A DNA stretch of 41,822 bases from a virus, in UHGV virus genome UHGV-0104471; one strand, 5' to 3'. The notes under the pieces were generated by a model, which worked only from the letters and a program-made list of their open reading frames with translations, searched no databases and had not been told where the DNA came from. Both the position numbers and the translations under genes were made by a program. This document shows positions 1,020-30,097 of this stretch, one piece after another; within the stretch, counting starts at the first letter, position 1; the number at the start of each line of letters is the position of its first letter.

Positions 1020-1372
1020 TACGCCTCCGATGTAACAGTCGTTATTCCATAAAGAGTGTCGATTTCAGCGGAAAACATGACACGTCGGGTCGTGGTATCC
1101 ACCGTCGTATTGAAAGAGAGGATTGATTTAACGCCCCGCGTTTCGAGGATGCGCTTACGGATCGCCAGGTTGTAGGTTTCCGGCTTCTGCTTACCGAGTA
1201 CGGACTGGATCCACGGAGTCCCCTCGGTGGTGTCGAGAAACCATTGCCCATACCACAATTCGAATCGCGTTTTTACCGCCTGCGCCACGGCCTCCGGTGA
1301 GTTAATCAGCCAGGTATCATCGCCGCTGCCAAAGGTGTAATCACAGTCGGCGTCTTCGCGTCTGTATCGCAT
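1019..1372 (-). CDS. small baseplate protein (gpW / gp25-like), 117 aa
   Basis: Track ORF; size and position between spike-like and J-like genes; overlapping start/stop coupling at both ends. Confidence 0.45.
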   Translation of the reverse strand: MRYRREDADCDYTFGSGDDTWLINSPEAVAQAVKTRFELWYGQWFLDTTEGTPWIQSVLGKQKPETYNLAIRKRILETRGVKSILSFNTTVDTTTRRVMFSAEIDTLYGITTVTSEA

Positions 1373-2124
1373 CAGTTCACCCCGTCTGTGTTGCTTCCGC
1401 CTCGCTGAACCCCGCCGTGCGTGTGCGTATCATCAATTGACTTGCCGTTAGCCTTAACGCTCCCCAAGAACTCAACAGCACCAGTGATTTTTGAAGCCAC
1501 ACCAGAAACAACAGACCCCACCATGCCCCCCATCCAGGTTAACAGGCCATGAATGGTTACTTTCTCAGAAAAATCAGCCAGAGGGGCAACCACATCAAGA
1601 CCACCCGGAGCGACAATTTTAATTTTCCTGGTGTCAGGATTAAGCTCAAAATAGGTGCTGCCGTCGTCACTACGCAACTGTGTGGCACTGGTATTAATAC
1701 CGCTAATCTTCCTCGCCTGCGACTGGGGACCGACAATACAAAACGCATCCGATAAATCATGCATTCTGTCATCGACCGGCTCCTGTATCCCGCCACTCTG
1801 CCACCAGAAATCAATACAACGATCGGCAAAAACGACAAGACACTCATCCCCGGCTTTTACCGGAAAAGTCAACGTGCAGCCTCCGCCGCGCGGGAATACC
1901 ACTGGCACATCCACCAGCAGGGGTAATGTCGTCGACTGGTTGATTCCATTTGAGTCCGGCTCATAGCCTTTAATCGCAGGTTGAACAACTACCGTTACCG
2001 TGTCCGGATCAAATGACTGGACAATTCCGGGCAGAGAAACACGCAGTGCCGACATGACAGAACCAGCAAGTCTTACATCGGCCTGTTCTTTGCTACCAAG
2101 TTGAGCGCTTAAAGAAACGGGCAT
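1372..2124 (-). CDS. baseplate spike / assembly protein V-like, 250 aa
   Basis: Track ORF; Gly-rich C-terminus (HTHGGVQRGGSNTDG) typical of spike proteins; SD GGAGA 7 nt upstream of ATG at 2124. Confidence 0.45.
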   Translation of the reverse strand: MPVSLSAQLGSKEQADVRLAGSVMSALRVSLPGIVQSFDPDTVTVVVQPAIKGYEPDSNGINQSTTLPLLVDVPVVFPRGGGCTLTFPVKAGDECLVVFADRCIDFWWQSGGIQEPVDDRMHDLSDAFCIVGPQSQARKISGINTSATQLRSDDGSTYFELNPDTRKIKIVAPGGLDVVAPLADFSEKVTIHGLLTWMGGMVGSVVSGVASKITGAVEFLGSVKANGKSIDDTHTHGGVQRGGSNTDGVN

Positions 2125-2143: not shown

Positions 2144-2171
2144 AAAAAACCCAGCCAAAGCTGGGTTTTTT
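2144..2171. terminator. bidirectional Rho-independent terminator (A6-stem-loop-T6)
   Basis: aaaaaaCCCAGCcaaaGCTGGGtttttt between ant stop (2185) and spike gene start (2124). Confidence 0.6.
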
Positions 2172-2184
2172 AAGTTGTCAATTG

Positions 2185-3099
2185 TCAGTAACGATGCAGT
2201 GAAGGCGGCAACTCTTTGTTCTTAAGTCTTACCCATGCGGAAAGATTCGTTGGTCCGTCTGGCTCATTGATATCAACATCTCGTGTGTGGTTGATTAAAA
2301 CGTCTCTCGCCATTCCGATAACATACGAAAACTCATGACCGTAGTCGTAGCATCTTCCGGAATAGTTCGATTGAATTTGTTTTAATGCCGGATACAGTTC
2401 GCGGAATAATGCCTGTGATCGGTTAGCATAATCCCACAACCATACAAGGCTGTTTGCTTCTTTTGCAGAAAGCTCGTTGGTGCTCTTCTCTTGTTTGCCA
2501 ATGAACTCACCTTCAAGTGGAACTCGAGCTGCAAGTGACAGTGCTTCGGTAAACTGCTCCTCACTGATTTCTTTGTACGAACAGCCAAAATGAGATTTCA
2601 GTGACGACCACATGGTGATCATCGCCTTCGCCTGTTTTTCTTTTGGCAGAGACTGACCGCGACTCATGACGAGTTGTTTAATAGCTTCCTGCTGTTCAGT
2701 GGTGATTTTACCCGGCAACGCCTTTTTAGCTTTCGGTGTATTTCCGTAAGACCCCGTTTTACGAATGGATGGCAAAACTTCAGCTGTCACCCATTTGCGG
2801 AATTTGTGCGGGACTGAACCTTTATTGACGGCATCACGGCAGCGCAGAACCAATGTATACATACCTGATTCGCTCACAATGCTTAAATTCTGCTCACCAC
2901 CAAGGGTGTAACTTAAAGTTACTCCCTTCTCATCGTCATCAAGTGCAGTAAGCGCCTTGCGTGAGTTAGTCAGAGTTAAAGCATCACAAACATCTTTTGC
3001 TACAAACCACGGCTCACCGCACCTGTTGATGACGCGGATTTCACTGTCGCCGAATTTGAAGATGGTGAAATCGTTTTGTGCCTTTGCTATACTTTTCAT
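2185..3099 (-). CDS. ant: antirepressor Ant (Bro-N domain protein), 304 aa
   Basis: N-terminus [32 protein letters not shown] matches Bro-N/antirepressor signature; lies downstream of an arc-like gene and divergent from an mnt-like gene, as in P22 immI. Confidence 0.7.
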
Positions 3100-3170
3100 G
3101 TCAATATTTCCCGATCAGATTTGTTGATGTAGAAGCCTCGCCAGTTCCCGCTGTCGGGGCTTCGTTATTT

Positions 3171-3332
3171 TTAGAGAGCATTCCGCATTTTCTCCCGGTA
3201 CTTCAACCACCAAGCTAATCCTTGAACCAACACTGAGTTTTCTGACATTCCCTCTTCCTCTGCAATGCGCTTAACTTCTTCCTTAAAGCGGTACGGGTAG
3301 CGAAGAGTTGTCTTTACTTCATTCTTTTCCAT
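3171..3332 (-). CDS. arc: Arc-like ribbon-helix-helix repressor, 53 aa (below ORF-track size cutoff)
   Basis: Hand translation MEKNEVKTTLRYPYRFKEEVKRIAEEEGMSENSVLVQGLAWWLKYREKMRNAL; resembles P22 Arc (recalled ...LRWPREVLDLVRKVAEENGRSVNSEIYQRV...); SD AAGGAG 5 nt upstream of ATG at 3332. Confidence 0.6.
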   Translation of the reverse strand: MEKNEVKTTLRYPYRFKEEVKRIAEEEGMSENSVLVQGLAWWLKYREKMRNAL

Positions 3333-3354
3333 GCTGTCTCCTTATTTCACAATG

Positions 3355-3369
3355 AAGGCAAATTGCCTT
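3355..3369. promoter_or_regulatory. 15-bp perfect palindrome AAGGCAAaTTGCCTT, candidate operator in the arc/mnt divergent promoter region
   Basis: Seen in the 107-bp intergenic region between arc start (3332) and mnt start (3440); a partial second copy of the TTGCCT half-site lies near 3401-3412. Confidence 0.4.
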
Positions 3370-3439
3370 TAGAGTCAATTTACCATGATTGCACATGAAG
3401 TCAAGTTGCCTCTACAATGATTTTTATTTGAGGTGAGTT

Positions 3440-3763
3440 ATGTCAGAAAAATTTCCCAGCCAAATGCAAGACAAGTTCACCGTGAGGTTTCCTGACGGAT
3501 TGCGCGATGCTATAGCTGAACGAGCTAAACGTAATGGCAGATCAATGAACTCAGAGATTGTGCAGATACTGGAAGATGCCTTGAATGCAGAAAATACTCT
3601 TGGGGAAATAGCAGATAAAATTAACAGCGTCTCGGTTCCGCTAAATGTTGATGCGCTAGTTCAACTTCAAGCCCAAGTTATCGCCATGCAAAAAGAAATA
3701 CAGGAAAAGTTCAGAGAGCAGAACGAAAAGTTGAGAGAACTGCTAAACAAAAAACCCACCTGA
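3440..3763 (+). CDS. mnt: Mnt-like ribbon-helix-helix repressor, 107 aa
   Basis: N-terminus FTVRFPDGLRDAIAERAKRNGRSMNSEIVQILEDAL is an Arc/Mnt-family RHH motif; SD GAGGTGAG upstream; divergent from arc-ant. Confidence 0.65.
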   Translation: MSEKFPSQMQDKFTVRFPDGLRDAIAERAKRNGRSMNSEIVQILEDALNAENTLGEIADKINSVSVPLNVDALVQLQAQVIAMQKEIQEKFREQNEKLRELLNKKPT

Positions 3764-3770
3764 CGGTGGG
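3747..3770 (-). terminator. Rho-independent terminator for the - strand transcript
   Basis: CCCACCtgacGGTGGG stem-loop with T-run on the - strand (plus-strand a-run 3747-3754), 18 nt after the stop of the 3788-4123 gene; the mnt stop codon lies in the loop. Confidence 0.5.
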
Positions 3771-3787
3771 TTACGGAGAGGGCAAGA

Positions 3788-4123
3788 TCATTTAACCTTC
3801 CGGCAATCATACGTCCAGAACTCCCGAGGCTCGTCCATATTTTTGCGGATAACTTCAACGTTGAGGATCGCTTTTTTGTTTCGTTTGATGTAGTCCATAC
3901 CTAACCAACGTCCAGTATTAGGATCAGGTAACATCCATTGCATCATGACATTATCGAAATCGTCTTTTTGTTTCAAAAAGGTCATTTTTTGTGTTTCTGG
4001 CTTTTGACCATTGATGTGCATGAGGCCATCATTACCAGCATCAAAGCGGAATGGTCCGCACTGCGTTGCCGCCGAAACGGTTAACGGCAGGGCCAAGAAT
4101 AAACAAAAAAATACTTTTTTCAC
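3788..4123 (-). CDS. small secreted protein with signal peptide, 111 aa, unknown function
   Basis: N-terminus MKKVFFCLFLALPLTVSA|ATQC is a typical SPase I signal peptide; two Cys in the mature part (near N- and C-terminus); GTG start overlaps the hub gene stop (GTGA). Confidence 0.55.
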   Translation of the reverse strand: MKKVFFCLFLALPLTVSAATQCGPFRFDAGNDGLMHINGQKPETQKMTFLKQKDDFDNVMMQWMLPDPNTGRWLGMDYIKRNKKAILNVEVIRKNMDEPREFWTYDCRKVK

Positions 4124-5154
4124 TCTACATCTCCGACTTTGTCCAAAGTGCCTTTTGCCAATAGTTCTTTGCCACCTTTAGCCAGGCAAAGCAGGTCCAT
4201 ATACCACGCCTGCCCTCGGGTGTCGCCAGTATAATCAATGCTGCCCACAATGTAATCACCGTCAGTATTAATGCTGGCAGGCTGTGACATGCCTGGCAGA
4301 CCGTTAACGTAGAGATTACCGTCGCTTTCAGACTCATCCAGTCGTGCTGGCGATTTCGCTACCTGGTCATTACTCAAAGAGGCACGGTATACAGATGCCT
4401 GATCCAGACGAATAAGCCCACCGAGCTTAATATTTGGATTAATCAGACATCTGACATTTACGCCAGCTCCCATCGTCTGCTGTGGCATACCGATAAGCCC
4501 GGTGTTAGCATTCAACACCGTAGCAACACCAATATATTTATCTTCAGGAACAATATTTACCAGATTATTTTCATACCACCAGTTAGCTTTACACTGCCCT
4601 GCGATATGATTCATCAACCTTGATGTGTTTTGATAAACAACGCGACCCCGGGGAAATACCGTTTCGGGCATGTCAGGAACTGCGCCGGATTCGATGCCAT
4701 ATGGTTCGAATGATTTCATACCCAGACTGAAAAGATCGCTGTACTTCCAGCCAGCAGCCACTGTGGTTTTCACACTTGCGTTCAGGTGACCTTCCCAGCT
4801 GTCAATACACTGCAACATGATCCAACTGTCTGTGGCATTATCTTTACCAGTGACAGTAAAACGGATATCTCCATTGAATATCATGCCAACGTTTTCATCA
4901 GGATAATTACCCGCTGCATCCGGTTGCCCCTTGTATCCGGCAATAACCTGTATACGCGAAAACTCCTTCTGCATAATCCGGTTCTGAGTGGTAGGAGACA
5001 GGTTATAAACCTTAAAATTCCCAACGAATCCATTAAATATGGTCGCAGGCATTTTCTGAATATTGAAAGTGACTTTAAGCTCAGAAATTTTTATCCCGTC
5101 GCCCTTATCATCAACAAGCAATAATTCAAAGTGACGCATCCAGTTTTTCGACAT
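4120..5154 (-). CDS. baseplate hub protein (gpD / late-control-D-like), 344 aa
   Basis: Track ORF; size and position after tape measure and two small tail genes; call is by synteny. Confidence 0.45.
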   Translation of the reverse strand: MSKNWMRHFELLLVDDKGDGIKISELKVTFNIQKMPATIFNGFVGNFKVYNLSPTTQNRIMQKEFSRIQVIAGYKGQPDAAGNYPDENVGMIFNGDIRFTVTGKDNATDSWIMLQCIDSWEGHLNASVKTTVAAGWKYSDLFSLGMKSFEPYGIESGAVPDMPETVFPRGRVVYQNTSRLMNHIAGQCKANWWYENNLVNIVPEDKYIGVATVLNANTGLIGMPQQTMGAGVNVRCLINPNIKLGGLIRLDQASVYRASLSNDQVAKSPARLDESESDGNLYVNGLPGMSQPASINTDGDYIVGSIDYTGDTRGQAWYMDLLCLAKGGKELLAKGTLDKVGDVE

Positions 5155-5156
5155 TG

Positions 5157-5459
5157 TTACTCCGTGAAAACATAGAGGTGTGAGAGCGTTCCAAGATCGA
5201 ATTGCGTCGGGTTTTCCTGCCCTGCCACGTCGCAGAGTACCACCAGCGAAAACCCGAGATTCATATATCGATACTGCGCCAACAGGTCAGCACCCGTAAT
5301 CATCGGAATGCCTGAGATAATGGCGGAACCATTGCTGTCAGCAAGATCCAGAACCCAGTACTCTCCGCGCCAGATGACAGACAGTTGATAAACCGTACCG
5401 TTAATTGTGGTGGCAAAAGTCTGATTGTCAGCAACCAGTGGGATTTCTACGGCCTCCAT
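5157..5459 (-). CDS. hypothetical tail/baseplate protein, 100 aa
   Basis: Track ORF packed between a tail protein gene and the hub gene. Confidence 0.45.
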   Translation of the reverse strand: MEAVEIPLVADNQTFATTINGTVYQLSVIWRGEYWVLDLADSNGSAIISGIPMITGADLLAQYRYMNLGFSLVVLCDVAGQENPTQFDLGTLSHLYVFTE

Positions 5460-5462
5460 GAA

Positions 5463-6113
5463 TCACCTTCCCAGAAATAAATTGCTCAGATACCCATCAA
5501 CAGTGGTGACACCTTTTTGCGCTATCTGTGGCAGCGATTTCAGAATGGAATTATTCGGCGGCACCGTTGTTTTGGTGCCTGTATTCTGCACAGCAGACGT
5601 TCCGACTCCCTCGGTCATATTGTTTTTCGTGGCTACCCTGACTGACTGCGTGGAGGTAATAATTACTTCCCTGAGGGTAAGTGTCGCCAGAAGCACATTT
5701 TCACTACTCTTATCGGTCGTGACCTCCAGCGTTTTTATCAACATATTGTTGTAAATACGCTTGCCGGTTGTCACATCGAAAGGAATACGATTCCGCTGCA
5801 GGTTAAGCAGTTCCTGATACAGTTCTTTCGGGCTCAGCCCCAGTAAACTGGTAGCCGTCAGGTTACTGGCAAAATCAAGCAGCGATCCGCCTCCGGAAAA
5901 ACCGGTTTCCATCACAACCTCAGAAGGGCGCCTGAATGCGTGTTCTGATATGTAACCAGCGCCCTCACCACTGGCGCCAGCATTCGTGGGCTGTTCAACC
6001 GGATGTTCCGTAATTTCCAGGGCGTCAGTGTGCTTTTCGGTAATAACCACATCAGGAATAATGATTCCTATTGAGCGGGTTCGCTGCTGCAGTAAAACAG
6101 ATAAAAAGTCCAT
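5463..6113 (-). CDS. tail protein, 216 aa, immediately downstream of tape measure
   Basis: Track ORF; start overlaps the tape measure stop; function by synteny only. Confidence 0.4.
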   Translation of the reverse strand: MDFLSVLLQQRTRSIGIIIPDVVITEKHTDALEITEHPVEQPTNAGASGEGAGYISEHAFRRPSEVVMETGFSGGGSLLDFASNLTATSLLGLSPKELYQELLNLQRNRIPFDVTTGKRIYNNMLIKTLEVTTDKSSENVLLATLTLREVIITSTQSVRVATKNNMTEGVGTSAVQNTGTKTTVPPNNSILKSLPQIAQKGVTTVDGYLSNLFLGR

Positions 6114-8065
6114 TACGCAGGTCCTTTCAATTGCTGTACCGCCCTGGCATTTACAGCCCCCTGCTTGTCAGCGATCAGATTAGCCGCCTCCTGAGGGTTG
6201 TTAACTCCATGAACATTTATAACAGTCTGCTGGTTAAGGCTGCCAGCGGCGGCCTGATACGCCAGCGGGCTGTTCCAGTTTGAATAACCTTCTTTGCGCG
6301 CCATCGACTGCATCAATGCTCCCATAGTACGGGGATCTGTAAGATTCAATATTGCATTCGGTGATACTCCCATCCATTTCGCAACATCCTGTGCATACTT
6401 TTTCGGATCGTTGTTATCACCTGCCGGGGCCCAGGTACTGACAATATCCTGAATAGTCTGTAATGCCCGTCCGGTTGTTTTCCCGGTAAAGTAACGCATG
6501 AGCTGGTTTTTCATCGCCTCCCAGCCCTCAAGAGCTGATTCGAAAAACCGGAACCCTTTACCGCTCACCGGGCGAATATTCCCTGGATTGTTATTCCGAT
6601 CGGCTAAAGTACGCTTCGTAGCCTGTGCATGTTGTTCCGGCTCAGCACCTGGAATATCTGACTGAATATTTGCGCCTTTTACGGTATGAGGATTACGACC
6701 AAAATCGGTATCAATGCCAAGCCAGCGCAATGAATCTCCAATATTTTGTTTCGTGTAATCCCAGGATGACTTCGCACTGGTACCAATATTTTCGCGATCG
6801 GAGTACAAATAAGCAGCATAAGCCATCCAGCCTTTTAACCATGGCGGTACCGGCAAACCAGATATTTTCCCGAAAGCCCCCAGGACCTTGGATACCCAGA
6901 CACCCGCGATGAATGTACCGAGGATTTCCAATGATTTTTGCCAGCCGCCAACACCATCTTTTAGTTCCAGAAGGTGATCACGAAGCCAGGTGATCGCATC
7001 CTTCGCTTTATCTATTGCCGGTTGCCATTTTTCCCAGTCGATAAGACTGTTACCGCCTTCTTTCCATGTTTTGTAGTCTTCCCACAAGAGACTGAGAGCC
7101 ACGATCAGACCGGTAATCAGCCCTATAGGTGACATCCAGAAAGTAGAGTTAAGTATCCGCATGGCGACAACCAGACCGCCGATAACCTCTATCAGGGTTT
7201 TCGTTTCGGCATCCAGTTTTCCCCACCACTCGATGATATCTCCGACACCATCGACTATCCGAAATGCAACCCGCCCGACTATCTCACCCAGCCAGAGGAT
7301 CCCCTTTATGACCTTTGTGATGGTGACTTCAATTTTGGGAAAATTTTCAATTATCTTTTTGCGCAGGTTATCAATCTGCCCCGCCAGTCCGTCCGCAAGA
7401 TTCGATCCGATTTTGTCCCGCGCCATCCCGGCCATTTCACCGAGCGATTTCAGCGAGGTCATAAACCGGTTTGACGATAAGGCAGCCTGATCGGCATTAA
7501 ATCCGATAGCTTTCGCCATTGCGCTGTACTGCCCGGAGAACCCCCCCACACCCCGGCGCATCGCCATAAGGGTATTTTCGTCAATGCCCAGCATCTGCGC
7601 ATACTGGTTAGCCCGGTAATACGGCATGCTGCTGAGCTTCTGGCCGACGCCCGTAAAGATAGCGGCCATGTCGCGCATGTTACCGCTGGCGTCACGGGTC
7701 TGTACCCCCAGACGATTCAGAAATCCCTCCGCCCCGGGATTATTACGAATAAACCGGGAGAGGTTTTCCAGAGAAGATCGCGCAGCGTCCACGCTGCCGC
7801 CAACCTGCGAAACCGCATAGCCAATAGACTGAATCCCCTGAACCGTCGCGCCGGTGCGCTGTGACGCCCAGTAGAGATTATCCAGACCGGAGGCGATCTT
7901 AGCCGTGAAGGCCACCACGGACAGCGCAGCTCCTTCAACAGCCAGCCCCATTTTGATGACATTTGCAGTTGTACCGGCGAGGACAGAACCGAACTTTTTC
8001 GCTCCTGCATCATCCACACTGAAGCCAAGCGAGACGAGGAAATCTTTAATAGTTTCAGCGTTCAT
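6113..8065 (-). CDS. tail tape measure protein
   Basis: Long ORF with hydrophobic central segments; follows the chaperone/frameshift pair; track start is TTG at 8086, preferred start is ATG at 8065 (MNAETIKDF...) with SD GGAGAGAGGA. Confidence 0.7.
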   Translation of the reverse strand: MNAETIKDFLVSLGFSVDDAGAKKFGSVLAGTTANVIKMGLAVEGAALSVVAFTAKIASGLDNLYWASQRTGATVQGIQSIGYAVSQVGGSVDAARSSLENLSRFIRNNPGAEGFLNRLGVQTRDASGNMRDMAAIFTGVGQKLSSMPYYRANQYAQMLGIDENTLMAMRRGVGGFSGQYSAMAKAIGFNADQAALSSNRFMTSLKSLGEMAGMARDKIGSNLADGLAGQIDNLRKKIIENFPKIEVTITKVIKGILWLGEIVGRVAFRIVDGVGDIIEWWGKLDAETKTLIEVIGGLVVAMRILNSTFWMSPIGLITGLIVALSLLWEDYKTWKEGGNSLIDWEKWQPAIDKAKDAITWLRDHLLELKDGVGGWQKSLEILGTFIAGVWVSKVLGAFGKISGLPVPPWLKGWMAYAAYLYSDRENIGTSAKSSWDYTKQNIGDSLRWLGIDTDFGRNPHTVKGANIQSDIPGAEPEQHAQATKRTLADRNNNPGNIRPVSGKGFRFFESALEGWEAMKNQLMRYFTGKTTGRALQTIQDIVSTWAPAGDNNDPKKYAQDVAKWMGVSPNAILNLTDPRTMGALMQSMARKEGYSNWNSPLAYQAAAGSLNQQTVINVHGVNNPQEAANLIADKQGAVNARAVQQLKGPA

Positions 8066-19931: not shown

Positions 19932-20474
19932 TTAATTAGTGAGTCCGGGGATTACGGTTTGCCCGTGCTGTTCAAGGCGTTCAATTCTCGCCAGTAGCTG
20001 AGGCTTCTTAATTTTTCCCCAGCGATTAAGCAGGCGCCCTGACATGCTGGCAACATCCTTCTCTTTCATGTACTCCAGCATTACGGCATTTCTCTCTTCT
20101 TCAAATTGACGATGACCAACCTGAAGCATGGCGTACATCCAGTTAAATGCGTTGATGTAAGCAATTTTGATACGCATTGCTTCTTTTTTGGTGTAGGACA
20201 TAACCAAAAGCATCAACCCATCCTTGCGGAGACGGTAGAATTTTTGCGGCTTACCATTCTGTAACTCATTGTTTTTATAGCAAAGCTCAAAGTTGAGCTT
20301 TGTATCAAACTCAGGAGGGCAAGCTTCTATGGTTCGTTCAATGTCACGAACCACGTTCTTCGGCAGCTTTCCAAATGCTTTTGCCACCATAAAAGAATCT
20401 GTAACCGGATCGTTGTTTGCTACAAAAATTAGGTCTCTGAAATCTATATCGTTAACAACGGTTGGGTAGTTCAT
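19932..20474 (-). CDS. rha: Rha-family phage regulatory protein, 180 aa
   Basis: N-terminal Phage_pRha-like motif VTDSFMVAKAFGKLPKNVVRDIERTIEACPPEF. Confidence 0.6.
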   Translation of the reverse strand: MNYPTVVNDIDFRDLIFVANNDPVTDSFMVAKAFGKLPKNVVRDIERTIEACPPEFDTKLNFELCYKNNELQNGKPQKFYRLRKDGLMLLVMSYTKKEAMRIKIAYINAFNWMYAMLQVGHRQFEEERNAVMLEYMKEKDVASMSGRLLNRWGKIKKPQLLARIERLEQHGQTVIPGLTN

Positions 20475-22115: not shown

Positions 22116-22191
22116 TGGTGCTGGTTAACGGACTTGACCCGCTACCAATTCGCTTACAAGGCGACCGCTCTACCATTGGAGCTAAACCAGC
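22116..22191 (-). tRNA. tRNA-Thr(UGU)-like gene, 76 nt
   Basis: Hand fold: acceptor GCUGGUU/AACCAGC, D-arm GCUC/GAGC, anticodon loop CUUGUAA, T-arm AGCGG/CCGUU (one G-U), 3' ACCA encoded; T-loop has G at position 54. Confidence 0.5.
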
Positions 22192-22196
22192 ATGTT

Positions 22197-22271
22197 TGGC
22201 GGGACAGCGTGGACTCGAACCACGATAAGAAGGTTAACAGCCTTCCGTAATGACCTTTATACGACTGACCC
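22197..22271 (-). tRNA. tRNA-Asn(GUU)-like gene, 75 nt, imperfect acceptor and D stems
   Basis: Hand fold: anticodon arm GAAGG-CUGUUAA-CCUUC, T-arm CGUGG-UUCGAGU-CCACG, 3' GCCA; acceptor stem has one U-U mismatch; resembles E. coli tRNA-Asn around the anticodon and T arm. Confidence 0.4.
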
Positions 22272-22335: not shown

Positions 22336-22854
22336 CTAAATGGATAATTGCATGTCAAGGCTTTTAACAGCAACATGCTTAACTTTCTCAACACGTTTAC
22401 GCATTTTGAAAGCATTTTGCATTGGCTGGTACAAAACAAATAACGACGCTTTCAGGATGTCGTCAATTTCGTTTCTACAGGTTGCCAGTGAAGGTTTTCT
22501 CCATCCCTCGCCACCACGTCCACACATCTTGCGTGGCTTTGCAGTCGCGTGATAGTAGGATGCAATTGCTCGCTTAGATGAACCATGAGCGTAGTAGCTG
22601 AGGAGGATGCCAAAGGCTTTCTTGTCAATGTACATGACGGAATCGACGACCTGAGAAATCAACATTCCATCATCATCATTACACATTGGCCTTGTCATAA
22701 CTCTTCCCGGCTCTACGCTCTCCATGAACTTCGCTATTACGCTGCTCATGCGCTTTTCCAGACGACCTGAATAAACCCATGCGCCCCACAGTTCAAGCCA
22801 GCCATTCAGCCACTCGTGCTGCTCTTTGGTGAGGTTTAGTTCTCTTATGCTCAT
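22336..22854 (-). CDS. Q: late-gene antiterminator Q (Phage_antitermQ family, DLP12 QuuD-like)
   Basis: Position between ninH and the lysis cassette; shares recalled QuuD motifs (LELWGAW, CNDDDGM). Confidence 0.6.
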   Translation of the reverse strand: MSIRELNLTKEQHEWLNGWLELWGAWVYSGRLEKRMSSVIAKFMESVEPGRVMTRPMCNDDDGMLISQVVDSVMYIDKKAFGILLSYYAHGSSKRAIASYYHATAKPRKMCGRGGEGWRKPSLATCRNEIDDILKASLFVLYQPMQNAFKMRKRVEKVKHVAVKSLDMQLSI

Positions 22855-23398: not shown

Positions 23399-23685
23399 GA
23401 CTTAATCTTCCCCTCCTTCAGCAGTATCGCCTGCGTCCTGATTACGCCTTCGAGGTGGTAAAGTCTGGCGTCTTTGTTGTCGAGATTATGGGTGCGTCGG
23501 TCGATTTCATCGTGGCAGTCACTACAAGCCCATGCGCCGATCAGGTCGTCAGGTTTCATTCCCGTTCCGCAAATTCCAGCCATCCGGTAATGTGCCAGAA
23601 CTGTAGTTTCAGGATTACCATTGCATACGCCGTAAATACGTACCTGGCATTCTCTGCCGCGTGCTTCTTTGCGTAGGTTAGCCAT
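23395..23685 (-). CDS. YbcO-like protein (DUF1364, putative nuclease)
   Basis: ARGRECQVRI...CNGNPETTVLAH...CSDCHDEIDRRTH matches recalled DLP12 YbcO; four-Cys motif. Confidence 0.7.
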   Translation of the reverse strand: MANLRKEARGRECQVRIYGVCNGNPETTVLAHYRMAGICGTGMKPDDLIGAWACSDCHDEIDRRTHNLDNKDARLYHLEGVIRTQAILLKEGKIKS

Positions 23686-24407
23686 TAAGCAGCCTCCCCG
23701 GTTACTTTCAGCATCCCGTTATCGAGCAGCTTTCTGGTCAGCCACTGTTGACCACGCCCGGTGATTTTTGTGGTGAACGATATCTGTATTCCGTGATTTG
23801 TGTTGACCGCTGTTTCTTTCACTGTGAAATAGCCGCGATCCATATATTCCTGCATTGGCACATTGCGCCGGGAACCTGAAGCAATTAGGATTTTGTGATC
23901 GCGCATCCACGCAAACAGCTTGTTCGGACCAATACCGACAACCTTTGCAAAGTTTCCAATCAAAATTCCGCTGGCCTCGCCAACGCGATCGGCAAACTCA
24001 ACTTTAGGTGCGGCAATTGCGAGCTGGTTTTCCAGTTGCATTTTCTGCTCAGCAAGATCAGCAGCAAGGCGCAACGCTTCCGGTAGCGTTTTGGGGATAT
24101 TAACCGCAGCTTCTTCAAGCTCTCGCCAGCGGTCAACAAGGCGAGCGGTGAACTCTGGCGACAACTGGGCGACAACGACAATACTGTCTCGCTTACCTTG
24201 TTCGCCCTCGAAGACGTAATGCTCGTACTGAACATTGAACCCTAAGTTATTGATTCTTTCGGAAACCTCAATTTGAGGAAGCCGGATAACACCATTTTTA
24301 GCCAGCGTTTCGATGGTACGTTTCACATTGTCATGACGCTTACCCACCAACTCAGCGATTTCAATGCTTGTCATTTTGATGGCATTGCCATTTATTAACT
24401 CATTCAT
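23685..24407 (-). CDS. antirepressor-type regulator: Rha N-terminal domain + KilAC/ANT-like C-terminal domain, 240 aa
   Basis: N-terminus MTSIEIAELVGKRHDNVKRTIETL is a Phage_pRha signature; C-terminal half resembles antirepressor KilAC domains. Confidence 0.6.
   Translation of the reverse strand: MNELINGNAIKMTSIEIAELVGKRHDNVKRTIETLAKNGVIRLPQIEVSERINNLGFNVQYEHYVFEGEQGKRDSIVVVAQLSPEFTARLVDRWRELEEAAVNIPKTLPEALRLAADLAEQKMQLENQLAIAAPKVEFADRVGEASGILIGNFAKVVGIGPNKLFAWMRDHKILIASGSRRNVPMQEYMDRGYFTVKETAVNTNHGIQISFTTKITGRGQQWLTRKLLDNGMLKVTGEAA

Positions 24408-29309: not shown

Positions 29310-30097
<788 letters not shown>

Follow-up and report, generated by a model that had tools for sequence, protein, structure and literature searches.

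The viral genome UHGV-0104471 was analysed as one stretch of 41,822 nucleotides (nt; the window in the following), which carries near its start, at about 2144-3773, a cassette of 1.6 kb composed of genes for two small repressors and an antirepressor together with an antisense RNA, and resembling the immI region (mnt, arc, sar and ant) of phage P22. An initial annotation had proposed three open reading frames (ORFs) here, and these were confirmed at the same positions. The features of the cassette are as follows (lengths in amino acids, aa; RHH, ribbon-helix-helix; a dot marks features without a strand):

2144..2171 (-), ant terminator: a hairpin by folding, at which the cassette ends on the left and crosses over to the backbone
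2185..3099 (-), ant: 304 aa, with the domains Bro-N and P22_AR_C
3065..3093 (+), candidate sar promoter (Psar): from a promoter scan, within the start of ant
3100..3172 (+), sar-like RNA: from Rfam RF00262, its fold and covariation in a stem
3171..3332 (-), arc-like gene: a 53-aa RHH protein, first gene of the arc-ant operon
3355..3369 (.), O1 (s1): perfect palindrome AAGGCAAATTGCCTT
3372..3386 (.), s2: degenerate site GAGTCAATTTACCAT, inverted repeat I1
3398..3412 (.), O2 (s3): imperfect palindrome AAGTCAAGTTGCCTC
3440..3763 (+), mnt-like gene: 107 aa, an N-terminal RHH domain followed by an exchangeable C-terminal domain
3743..3772 (-), right-end hairpin with U-tail: by folding, with the mnt stop codon in the loop

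The reading of the three genes as an immI-like module was upheld by BLASTP, which related all three proteins to P22 Ant (in its C-terminal half), Arc and Mnt, and the mnt-like gene diverges from the ant operon as it does in P22. The 107-aa protein is clearly an RHH protein of the Arc/Mnt family, as had been proposed. It has a Pfam Arc match of 1.5e-18, shares 51% identity with P22 Mnt over the 37 aa of the RHH domain (E 1e-11) and matches AmrZ (3e-9) and Mnt (1mnt, 2.7e-6) in the PDB. Its C-terminal 50 aa, in the region where P22 Mnt has its tetramerisation domain, showed no similarity to P22 Mnt, and this part is exchanged among relatives, four different domains being found on the same N-terminal domain in other contigs. 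The 53-aa protein is a weaker but supported member of the RHH group. Its single sequence reached 19.2 bits with Pfam Arc (0.0011), slightly under the cut-off of 20.4 bits, and the assignment is supported by PHROG 582 ('Arc-like repressor', 3.8e-10), by a profile made from its eight closest homologues, which matched solved Arc repressors in the PDB (7e-6 to 3e-5), and by 41% identity to P22 Arc over 29 aa (BLASTP, E 8e-6). An AlphaFold2 model (pLDDT 80) has an extended N-terminus and helices at residues 16-27 and 31-52, equivalent to the two RHH helices; the top Foldseek superpositions of this model were RHH proteins (Arc, CopG, AmrZ), none of them significant (E about 0.8). The gene seems to be under purifying selection, because the protein is 98% identical to Arc of Edwardsiella phage GF-2 at only 84% nucleotide identity. 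In three Salmonella homologues of the Arc-like protein (P0003, P0005 and P0007), 8 or 16 residues of RHH helix A (EEVKRIAE) are duplicated in tandem and in frame.

The antirepressor gene encodes a protein with clear Bro-N (6.6e-20) and P22_AR_C (1.2e-29) domains and a strong match to PHROG 245 ('anti-repressor Ant', 2.3e-111). Its identity to P22 Ant is 63% in the C-terminal 190 aa (E 1e-81), and in the alignment, as inspected by eye, its final ~115 residues are close to 90% identical. The initial description as a Bro-N antirepressor related to P22 Ant thus stood for Bro-N itself and for the C-terminal part, but not for the N-terminal domain: Bro-N is unrelated to the P22_AR_N domain of P22 Ant, and two-domain homology to P22 Ant fails there. 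With P22_AR_C present and Bro-N in the place of P22_AR_N, the protein is therefore a domain-swapped relative of P22 Ant. A sequence search of the PDB with Ant found nothing. The phage has two more genes of antirepressor families, one at 23685-24407(-) in a nin-like region (Rha with KilAC/ANT) and one at 19932-20474(-) just 3' of the lysis genes (Rha with ORF11CD3), which brings its Ant/Rha-type regulators, ant included, to three.

We also found a sar-like RNA, overlooked in the initial annotation, which occupies the 71-nt spacer between arc and ant, spans the ribosome-binding region of ant and ends at the stop codon of arc. A permissive scan with the Rfam sar model (RF00262) gave a full-length match at 3101-3167(+) (28.5 bits, E 0.005), and a transcript of 3100-3172 folds at -26.4 kcal/mol (z -4.9) into the two-hairpin shape of P22 sar, the second hairpin being the terminator. 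In the P22 record, sar is annotated at the corresponding place, as are its promoter and terminator. The candidate Psar (GTGAAA, a spacer of 17 nt and the extended -10 TGcTATACT) would start the RNA at the base adjoining the ant start codon, and its extended -10 block TTGCTATACT is conserved with P22 at the place of the annotated sar promoter. Among five phages, pairing in the terminator stem is kept through one- and two-sided changes, two pairs having changed on both sides. By its place and its fold, the RNA at 3100-3172(+) appears to be the positional homologue of P22 sar.

The 107-bp spacer between the divergent genes contains the 15-bp palindrome AAGGCAAATTGCCTT (O1, of the form 7-1-7), as first described. 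A second half-site had been reported as partial; it is indeed present, but as a full, imperfect 15-bp site, AAGTCAAGTTGCCTC (O2), which forms part of a direct repeat of 30 nt whose two copies are spaced 43 bp apart. With at most two mismatches allowed, the palindrome pattern has two occurrences in the 41.8-kb window (0.28 expected), and both lie in this spacer; two or more matches were obtained in 2 of 100 shuffles. For the arc-ant operon we predict a promoter Pant on the - strand (-35 TTGACT at 3404-3399, -10 TAAATT at 3382-3377) and for mnt a promoter Pmnt on the + strand (-10 TACAAT at 3413-3418). O1 would then cover roughly positions +1 to +15 of Pant, at a distance of 30 bp to the arc start (28 bp for Omnt in P22); O2 overlaps the predicted -35 of Pant and abuts the predicted -10 of Pmnt. 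The site s2 overlaps the predicted -10 of Pant and is weak; its left half is conserved and its right half is not in L103, a contig with the same regulatory core. Six other contigs share this core; all of them keep O1 and O2 unchanged, and the DNA between the two sites varies. L103, the most diverged of the six, has its substitutions in the leader of arc, in the DNA separating the sites and close to the ribosome-binding site of mnt. An exact scan of viral contigs for the 15-mer gave 107 matches, of which all but six were chance occurrences with no Arc or Mnt nearby.

A further finding was that the palindrome covaries with Mnt. For this comparison modules were used that carry the Arc of the window with a different Mnt and a different palindrome:

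Mnt β-strand KF-T-VRFP, palindrome GGCAA-A-TTGCC: the type of the window
Mnt β-strand KF-V-VRFP, palindrome GGCAT-T-ATGCC: 7 contigs
Mnt β-strand KF-N-VRFP, palindrome GGCCATAATGCC: GF-2 and L198

Together with Mnt residue 14 (Thr, Val or Asn), and at an unchanged Arc, the inner palindrome bases change in both half-sites alike, and such symmetry is a signature of the binding site of a dimeric protein. A second, independent lineage of the Thr type (L157, L160 and L164) has GGC(A/T)A half-sites as well. Conversely, modules of the type of Shiga toxin (Stx) phage 2851 and of GF-2 share one Mnt type and the two sites, with different Arc proteins. Because the changes follow Mnt rather than Arc, we assign O1 and O2 to Mnt and, with moderate confidence, regard them as putative Mnt sites. 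Physical linkage confounds the two signals to some extent, since in a wider set the half-sites partly track the adjacent gene. A search for an operator of Arc yielded no site that could be assigned to it: modules that share Arc and differ in Mnt (the window, L126 and GF-2 types) have only GGC...GCC in common. In the alignment Arc and Mnt of the window have the same Lys, Thr and Arg at the three β-strand positions that contact bases in the Arc-operator structure. The two proteins might therefore read related half-sites, and Arc may share or compete for the sites of Mnt.

The proposal of terminators on both sides proved correct in that the hairpins on the two flanks are much more stable than folds of shuffled sequence. 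The left one, AAAAAACCCAGC-caaa-GCTGGGTTTTTT, is terminator-shaped in both directions (- strand, -18.7 kcal/mol with z -6.2; + strand, -17.9 with z -5.3). The right one, AACCCACC-gtca-GGTGGGTT, folds at -14.0 (z -4.3) over 3753-3772 and has a U-tail on the - strand only, and therefore faces transcription arriving from the side of the hub gene and its neighbouring 111-aa gene. Folding against shuffles, and not a consensus scan, was the basis of this judgement; a promoter and terminator consensus scan showed no enrichment over shuffles and missed the hairpin at 2144-2171, presumably as its A/T runs are absorbed into the stem. The ant terminator aligns with the annotated ant terminator of P22, 2144-2517 being 86% identical to P22 DNA, and the right hairpin matches the 3' end of P22 mnt at 92.6%. 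The ends are conserved more widely, as seen in a survey of the best 80 of more than 534 viral contigs with a gene for a close relative of the Mnt N-terminal domain: the mnt-end hairpin (an A-run with CCCACC-TGAx-GGTGGG) is found in 42 of the 80, and the ant-side hairpin CCCAGCCGAAGCTGGG closes cassettes in 17 of the 80 other contigs, in various contexts. In relatives with other cargo, too, a hairpin stands just upstream of the spike gene, and a hairpin at the left junction is therefore common to all relatives aligned.

The genes next to the cassette are:

1372..2124 (-), spike gene: Pfam PF18352 N-terminal domain (1.6e-44) and a GpV Apex motif
3788..4123 (-), backbone ORF outside the cassette: 111 aa, PHROG 3443

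The cassette had been placed between the hub and the spike gene. This holds on the spike side and not on the hub side, where the 111-aa backbone ORF intervenes. This ORF (PHROG 3443, of unknown function, 7.4e-48) has an N-terminal signal peptide and so looks secreted, overlaps the stop of the hub gene by 4 nt and is conserved in relatives without the cassette. That the cassette is an insert was borne out by comparison with related prophages, in which both flanks are collinear and other genes fill the slot. For instance, E. coli OkiPb01695 matches the window collinearly at 56-2168 and again at 3788-6200 (92-96% identity), with two unrelated genes between, and in general the flanks of relatives lacking the cassette genes are 92-97% identical. 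Elsewhere the slot holds a 79-aa DUF4282 gene (S163-2 and Z1323CEC0011), two hypothetical genes (E2348/69) or a 170-aa gene (phage vB_EcoM-606R2). Among the contigs the alternative cargo was located at 3895-5066 of L002 (two hypothetical proteins of 266 and 126 aa), 6886-7398 of L003 (170 aa) and 4013-4252 of L116 (79 aa, DUF4282); the proteins of 266, 126 and 170 aa had no Pfam match. An empty slot was not seen among the relatives compared. The slot between the 111-aa ORF and the spike gene is thus a cargo hotspot.

The borders of the insert are well defined. Homology to the cassettes of other phages runs from 2144/2145 to 3770-3773, and backbone homology reaches 2168, the backbone crossover lying within the AAAAAACCC run of the left hairpin. 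The GC content of the cassette is 0.42-0.46 and that of the flanks mostly 0.47-0.54. The spike-ant junction is rare, being present in 5 of 5426 complete E. coli genomes; the spike allele of the window occurs in 45 and a related allele in 294. The cassette is itself a mosaic, its parts having different closest relatives:

ant 3' half and most of mnt: Stx phages, e.g. 2851 (~93% DNA identity)
ant 5' half and sar: P22-like coliphage Kapi1 (~92% DNA identity)
arc: Edwardsiella myovirus GF-2 (84% DNA and 98% protein identity)

These relatives carry their cassettes at other sites, between lambda L-like and K-like tail genes in 2851 and 3' of the tape measure gene in GF-2, and in P22 the site lies between genes 16/sieA and 9. 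In the 80 contigs surveyed at least eight tail-gene junctions are occupied:

the slot of the window (111-aa ORF, then spike): 3 contigs
spike, then wedge, in GF-2-like tails: 11 contigs
tape measure, then orf24-like: 6 contigs
lambda-like L, then K: 6-7 contigs
lambda-like K, then I: 2 contigs
tape measure, then L: 3 contigs
just upstream of a tape-measure-like gene: 15-16 contigs
the P22 position: 10 contigs

In all but three of the 80 contigs the flanking tail genes are co-directional with arc-ant. It may be that cassettes settle in tail operons because only operons under Q antitermination tolerate inserts with terminators at both ends. The slot of the window holds two types of core, the window type in L119 (identical to L018) and the Arc and intergenic region of Stx phage 2851 in L140 and L143, so that two of the three contigs with this slot have the 2851-type regulatory core; this points to exchange of cassettes or to repeated insertion at the junction. 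The backbone of L119 has a spike that is only 65% identical. GF-2 (L007, 5051-5312) combines the window-like Arc (98%) with 2851-type operators and Mnt, and its DNA similarity ends exactly at the arc start codon (GTG in GF-2). By its sequence GF-2 seems to have arisen by recombination at that codon, and if the site of Arc lies in the spacer, Arc of GF-2 may be mismatched to its operators. Three P22-like contigs (L039, L060 and L094) have ant morons with two mnt-like genes, one of the window type and one of the P22 type, and two tandem ant-like genes. A tentative generalization, which we hold to be possible and rather doubtful, is that immI cassettes form one family of terminator-bounded units that sit in tail operons of all three tail types in late-gene orientation, and that here one operator family is placed at +1, -10 and -35 of Pant with its specificity set by a single residue of the Mnt β-strand.

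The phage itself has a lambdoid control region, with a repressor of the cI/C2 type (S24), a cII-like gene and a Q-like antiterminator. Two of these genes matter here:

22336..22854 (-), Q-like late antiterminator gene: PHROG 943 (1.8e-93)
29384..30097 (+), cI/C2-type repressor gene with an S24 C-terminal domain: PHROG 4 (2.8e-61)

The Q-like gene precedes the genes for tRNA, lysis, head and tail, all on the - strand, and these late genes run in the same direction as ant. Between the Q-like gene and those for lysis stand two tRNA genes, at 22119-22271(-), an arrangement shared with Stx-type lambdoid phages. The start codon of the spike gene follows only 19 nt past the ant terminator, which leaves no room for a spike promoter after the hairpin; consequently, transcription of the spike, gp25-like and J-like genes has to pass through the hairpins. 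Relatives with other cargo have a hairpin there as well, so that the backbone needs read-through with any cargo. Read-through of both hairpins would be accomplished by Q-modified polymerase. The C-terminal 128 aa of the repressor are 47% identical to P22 C2, and this cI/C2-type repressor is the presumed target of Ant, which could inactivate it.

Taken together, we consider it probable, at roughly 80%, that the region at about 2144-3773 is a portable, self-regulated immI-type 'ant moron' in a hypervariable cargo slot of the baseplate operon of a lambdoid myovirus. Gene content, homologies, borders, mosaicism, the conserved sar and hairpins and the covariation of operators with Mnt are established for the cassette, and its function would, by homology, be that of P22 immI. 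Every step of the working proposed here is modelled on that region. In a lysogen, Mnt made from Pmnt would bind O1, at the start of Pant, and O2, at its -35, and so keep Pant shut. Upon infection of a cell without Mnt, Pant would fire and Arc and Ant would be made, after which Arc would shut down the promoter region. The sar RNA, from the promoter within the start of ant, would pair with the ribosome-binding region of ant and limit translation of Ant, also from late read-through transcripts. Ant would bind repressors of the cI/C2 type without cleavage and could de-repress its own phage or co-resident prophages; P22 Ant is described as active on the repressors of P22, L, lambda and 21 (PMC3121763, citing Susskind and Botstein 1975). 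The end hairpins may insulate the cassette from stray transcription in the lysogen, and in lytic growth Q-modified polymerase would read through them to allow expression of the spike, gp25-like and J-like genes.

Several points weigh against a simple transfer of the P22 scheme. With Bro-N instead of P22_AR_N the target of Ant could differ. The sar match of 28.5 bits lies below the Rfam gathering score of 43, and a scan of the window at gathering thresholds returned two tRNAs only and no sar. The predicted promoters agree with the consensus at 9 of 12 positions, and the scan performed at chance level (7 found, 5.8 expected). The spacer has two to three sites of one type, none of them assignable to Arc, where P22 has two unlike operators. 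The role of Ant is unclear even within P22 (PMC3121763), and mnt transcripts were undetected in a lysogen of the related phage Kapi1 (PMC12922286), so that P22-like behaviour cannot be assumed.

Other explanations were weighed against the immunity reading. The one we take most seriously, unlikely as we hold it to be, is that the Bro-N/P22_AR_C protein acts on the repressors of other prophages, or as a DNA-binding regulator or anti-defence factor, which would make the cassette a weapon or signal directed at other elements. Bro-N is described as a DNA-binding domain, and it is the N-terminal domain that is swapped relative to P22 Ant; the two further Rha/KilAC-type 'antirepressor' genes of the phage fit the same idea. 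Antirepressors act across heteroimmune prophages, and P22 Ant is dispensable for the cycle of P22 itself (PMC3121763). Against such an outward role stand the near-90% identity of the last ~115 residues to P22 Ant, the 47% identity of the phage's own repressor to P22 C2 in the C-terminal domain, and the regulation by mnt, arc and sar, which is that of an immI unit.

It seems less probable still that the main effect of the cassette concerns tail gene dosage, its terminators and bound repressors throttling late transcripts towards the spike, gp25-like and J-like genes while Ant is incidental cargo. The 19-nt distance from terminator to spike start, without room for a promoter, would suit such an attenuator, as would a hairpin just upstream of the spike gene in every relative examined with any cargo, and for P22 the ant moron has been proposed to affect how often late transcription reaches the tailspike gene (PMC2629481). 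Nevertheless, all genes of the cassette are intact, arc is under purifying selection, and the conserved operators and sar would be needless for a mere attenuator; the dosage effect and the immunity reading do not exclude each other. That the genes belong to the tail module as a conserved, integral component, or form an RHH-based toxin-antitoxin pair, has hardly any probability left. RHH proteins are common antitoxins, and the Mnt-like protein has secondary Pfam matches to FitA-like RHH (8.3e-09, above the family cut-off) and HicB (0.0038), but a toxin-like partner is not present and all best matches are to Arc, Mnt and Ant. Both versions were ruled out by the relatives whose flanks, at 92-97% identity, enclose none of these genes and by the junction being found in 5 of 5426 genomes.

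With the immunity reading preferred, the region can be annotated with confidence for mnt, arc, sar, ant, operators and terminators. The cassette overturns no current understanding. It indicates that the second-immunity circuit of P22 spreads in cassette form through enterobacterial phages, and that these include all three tail types. Since antirepressors can induce heteroimmune prophages, including Stx phages with near-identical cassettes, this spread bears on prophage crosstalk and on the induction of toxin phages. The main by-products of the survey of 80 contigs are the many tail-operon junctions with fixed orientation and conserved hairpin ends, and the covariation of Mnt with its operator, in which residue 14 (Thr, Val or Asn) and the symmetric operator changes provide a compact natural series for DNA recognition by RHH proteins.

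To regard the arrangement as unusual would be an overstatement, as precedents exist in the P22-like ant moron (PMC2629481), in the ImmI of GF-2-like phages (PMC6372524) and in Stx phages. In P22-like phages, Villafane et al. 2008 defined the 'ant moron' as an insert that is hypervariable, is expressed independently and immediately precedes the tailspike gene, and that often contains mnt, arc, sar and ant (PMC2629481), and Katharios et al. reported ImmI genes (Ant, Mnt and Arc) in the GF-2-like myovirus Edno5 (PMC6372524). The type of insert was therefore already known, and what is new is the slot at the hub-spike junction of a myovirus baseplate operon; the domain-swapped Ant and the different operator family further set this cassette apart.

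Compared with P22 immI, the cassette has the same gene order and orientation, with mnt divergent from arc-ant and ant running with the late genes, repressors of the Arc/Mnt RHH family, sar at the arc-ant junction with the same promoter block, and a homologous ant terminator and mnt-end hairpin. In both cases the unit lies in a late operon just upstream of the gene for a tail protein that contacts the host (the tailspike in P22, the baseplate spike here), in a slot that is hypervariable among relatives. P22, however, is a podovirus, whereas the phage of the window is a myovirus with a lambdoid early region. P22 Ant has P22_AR_N where Bro-N is found here, the C-terminal domain of P22 Mnt is unrelated, and Omnt and Oarc have no sequence similarity to the operators of the window, which are two to three copies of one palindrome type. 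The companions sieA, hkcC and orf59a are absent from the cassette.

Stx phages such as 2851, YYZ-2008 and 1717 share ~93% DNA identity over the 3' half of ant and most of mnt, the same end hairpins and a position between tail genes in the same orientation, and the 2851-type core (Arc type and intergenic sequence) even occurs in the slot of the window, in L140 and L143. They differ in Arc and operators, in the β-strand of Mnt (Asn, where the window has Thr), in the N-terminal domain of Ant (P22_AR_N), and in having a siphovirus tail with the slot between L-like and K-like genes. The Edwardsiella myoviruses GF-2 and Edno5 are closest in their related contractile tail module with mnt, arc and ant inside the tail operon, and in an Arc of 98% protein identity, and it is for this group that the name ImmI has been used (PMC6372524). 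Their slot, in contrast, follows the tape measure gene, their Mnt type and operators are different, and their Ant has Bro-N only, without P22_AR_C.

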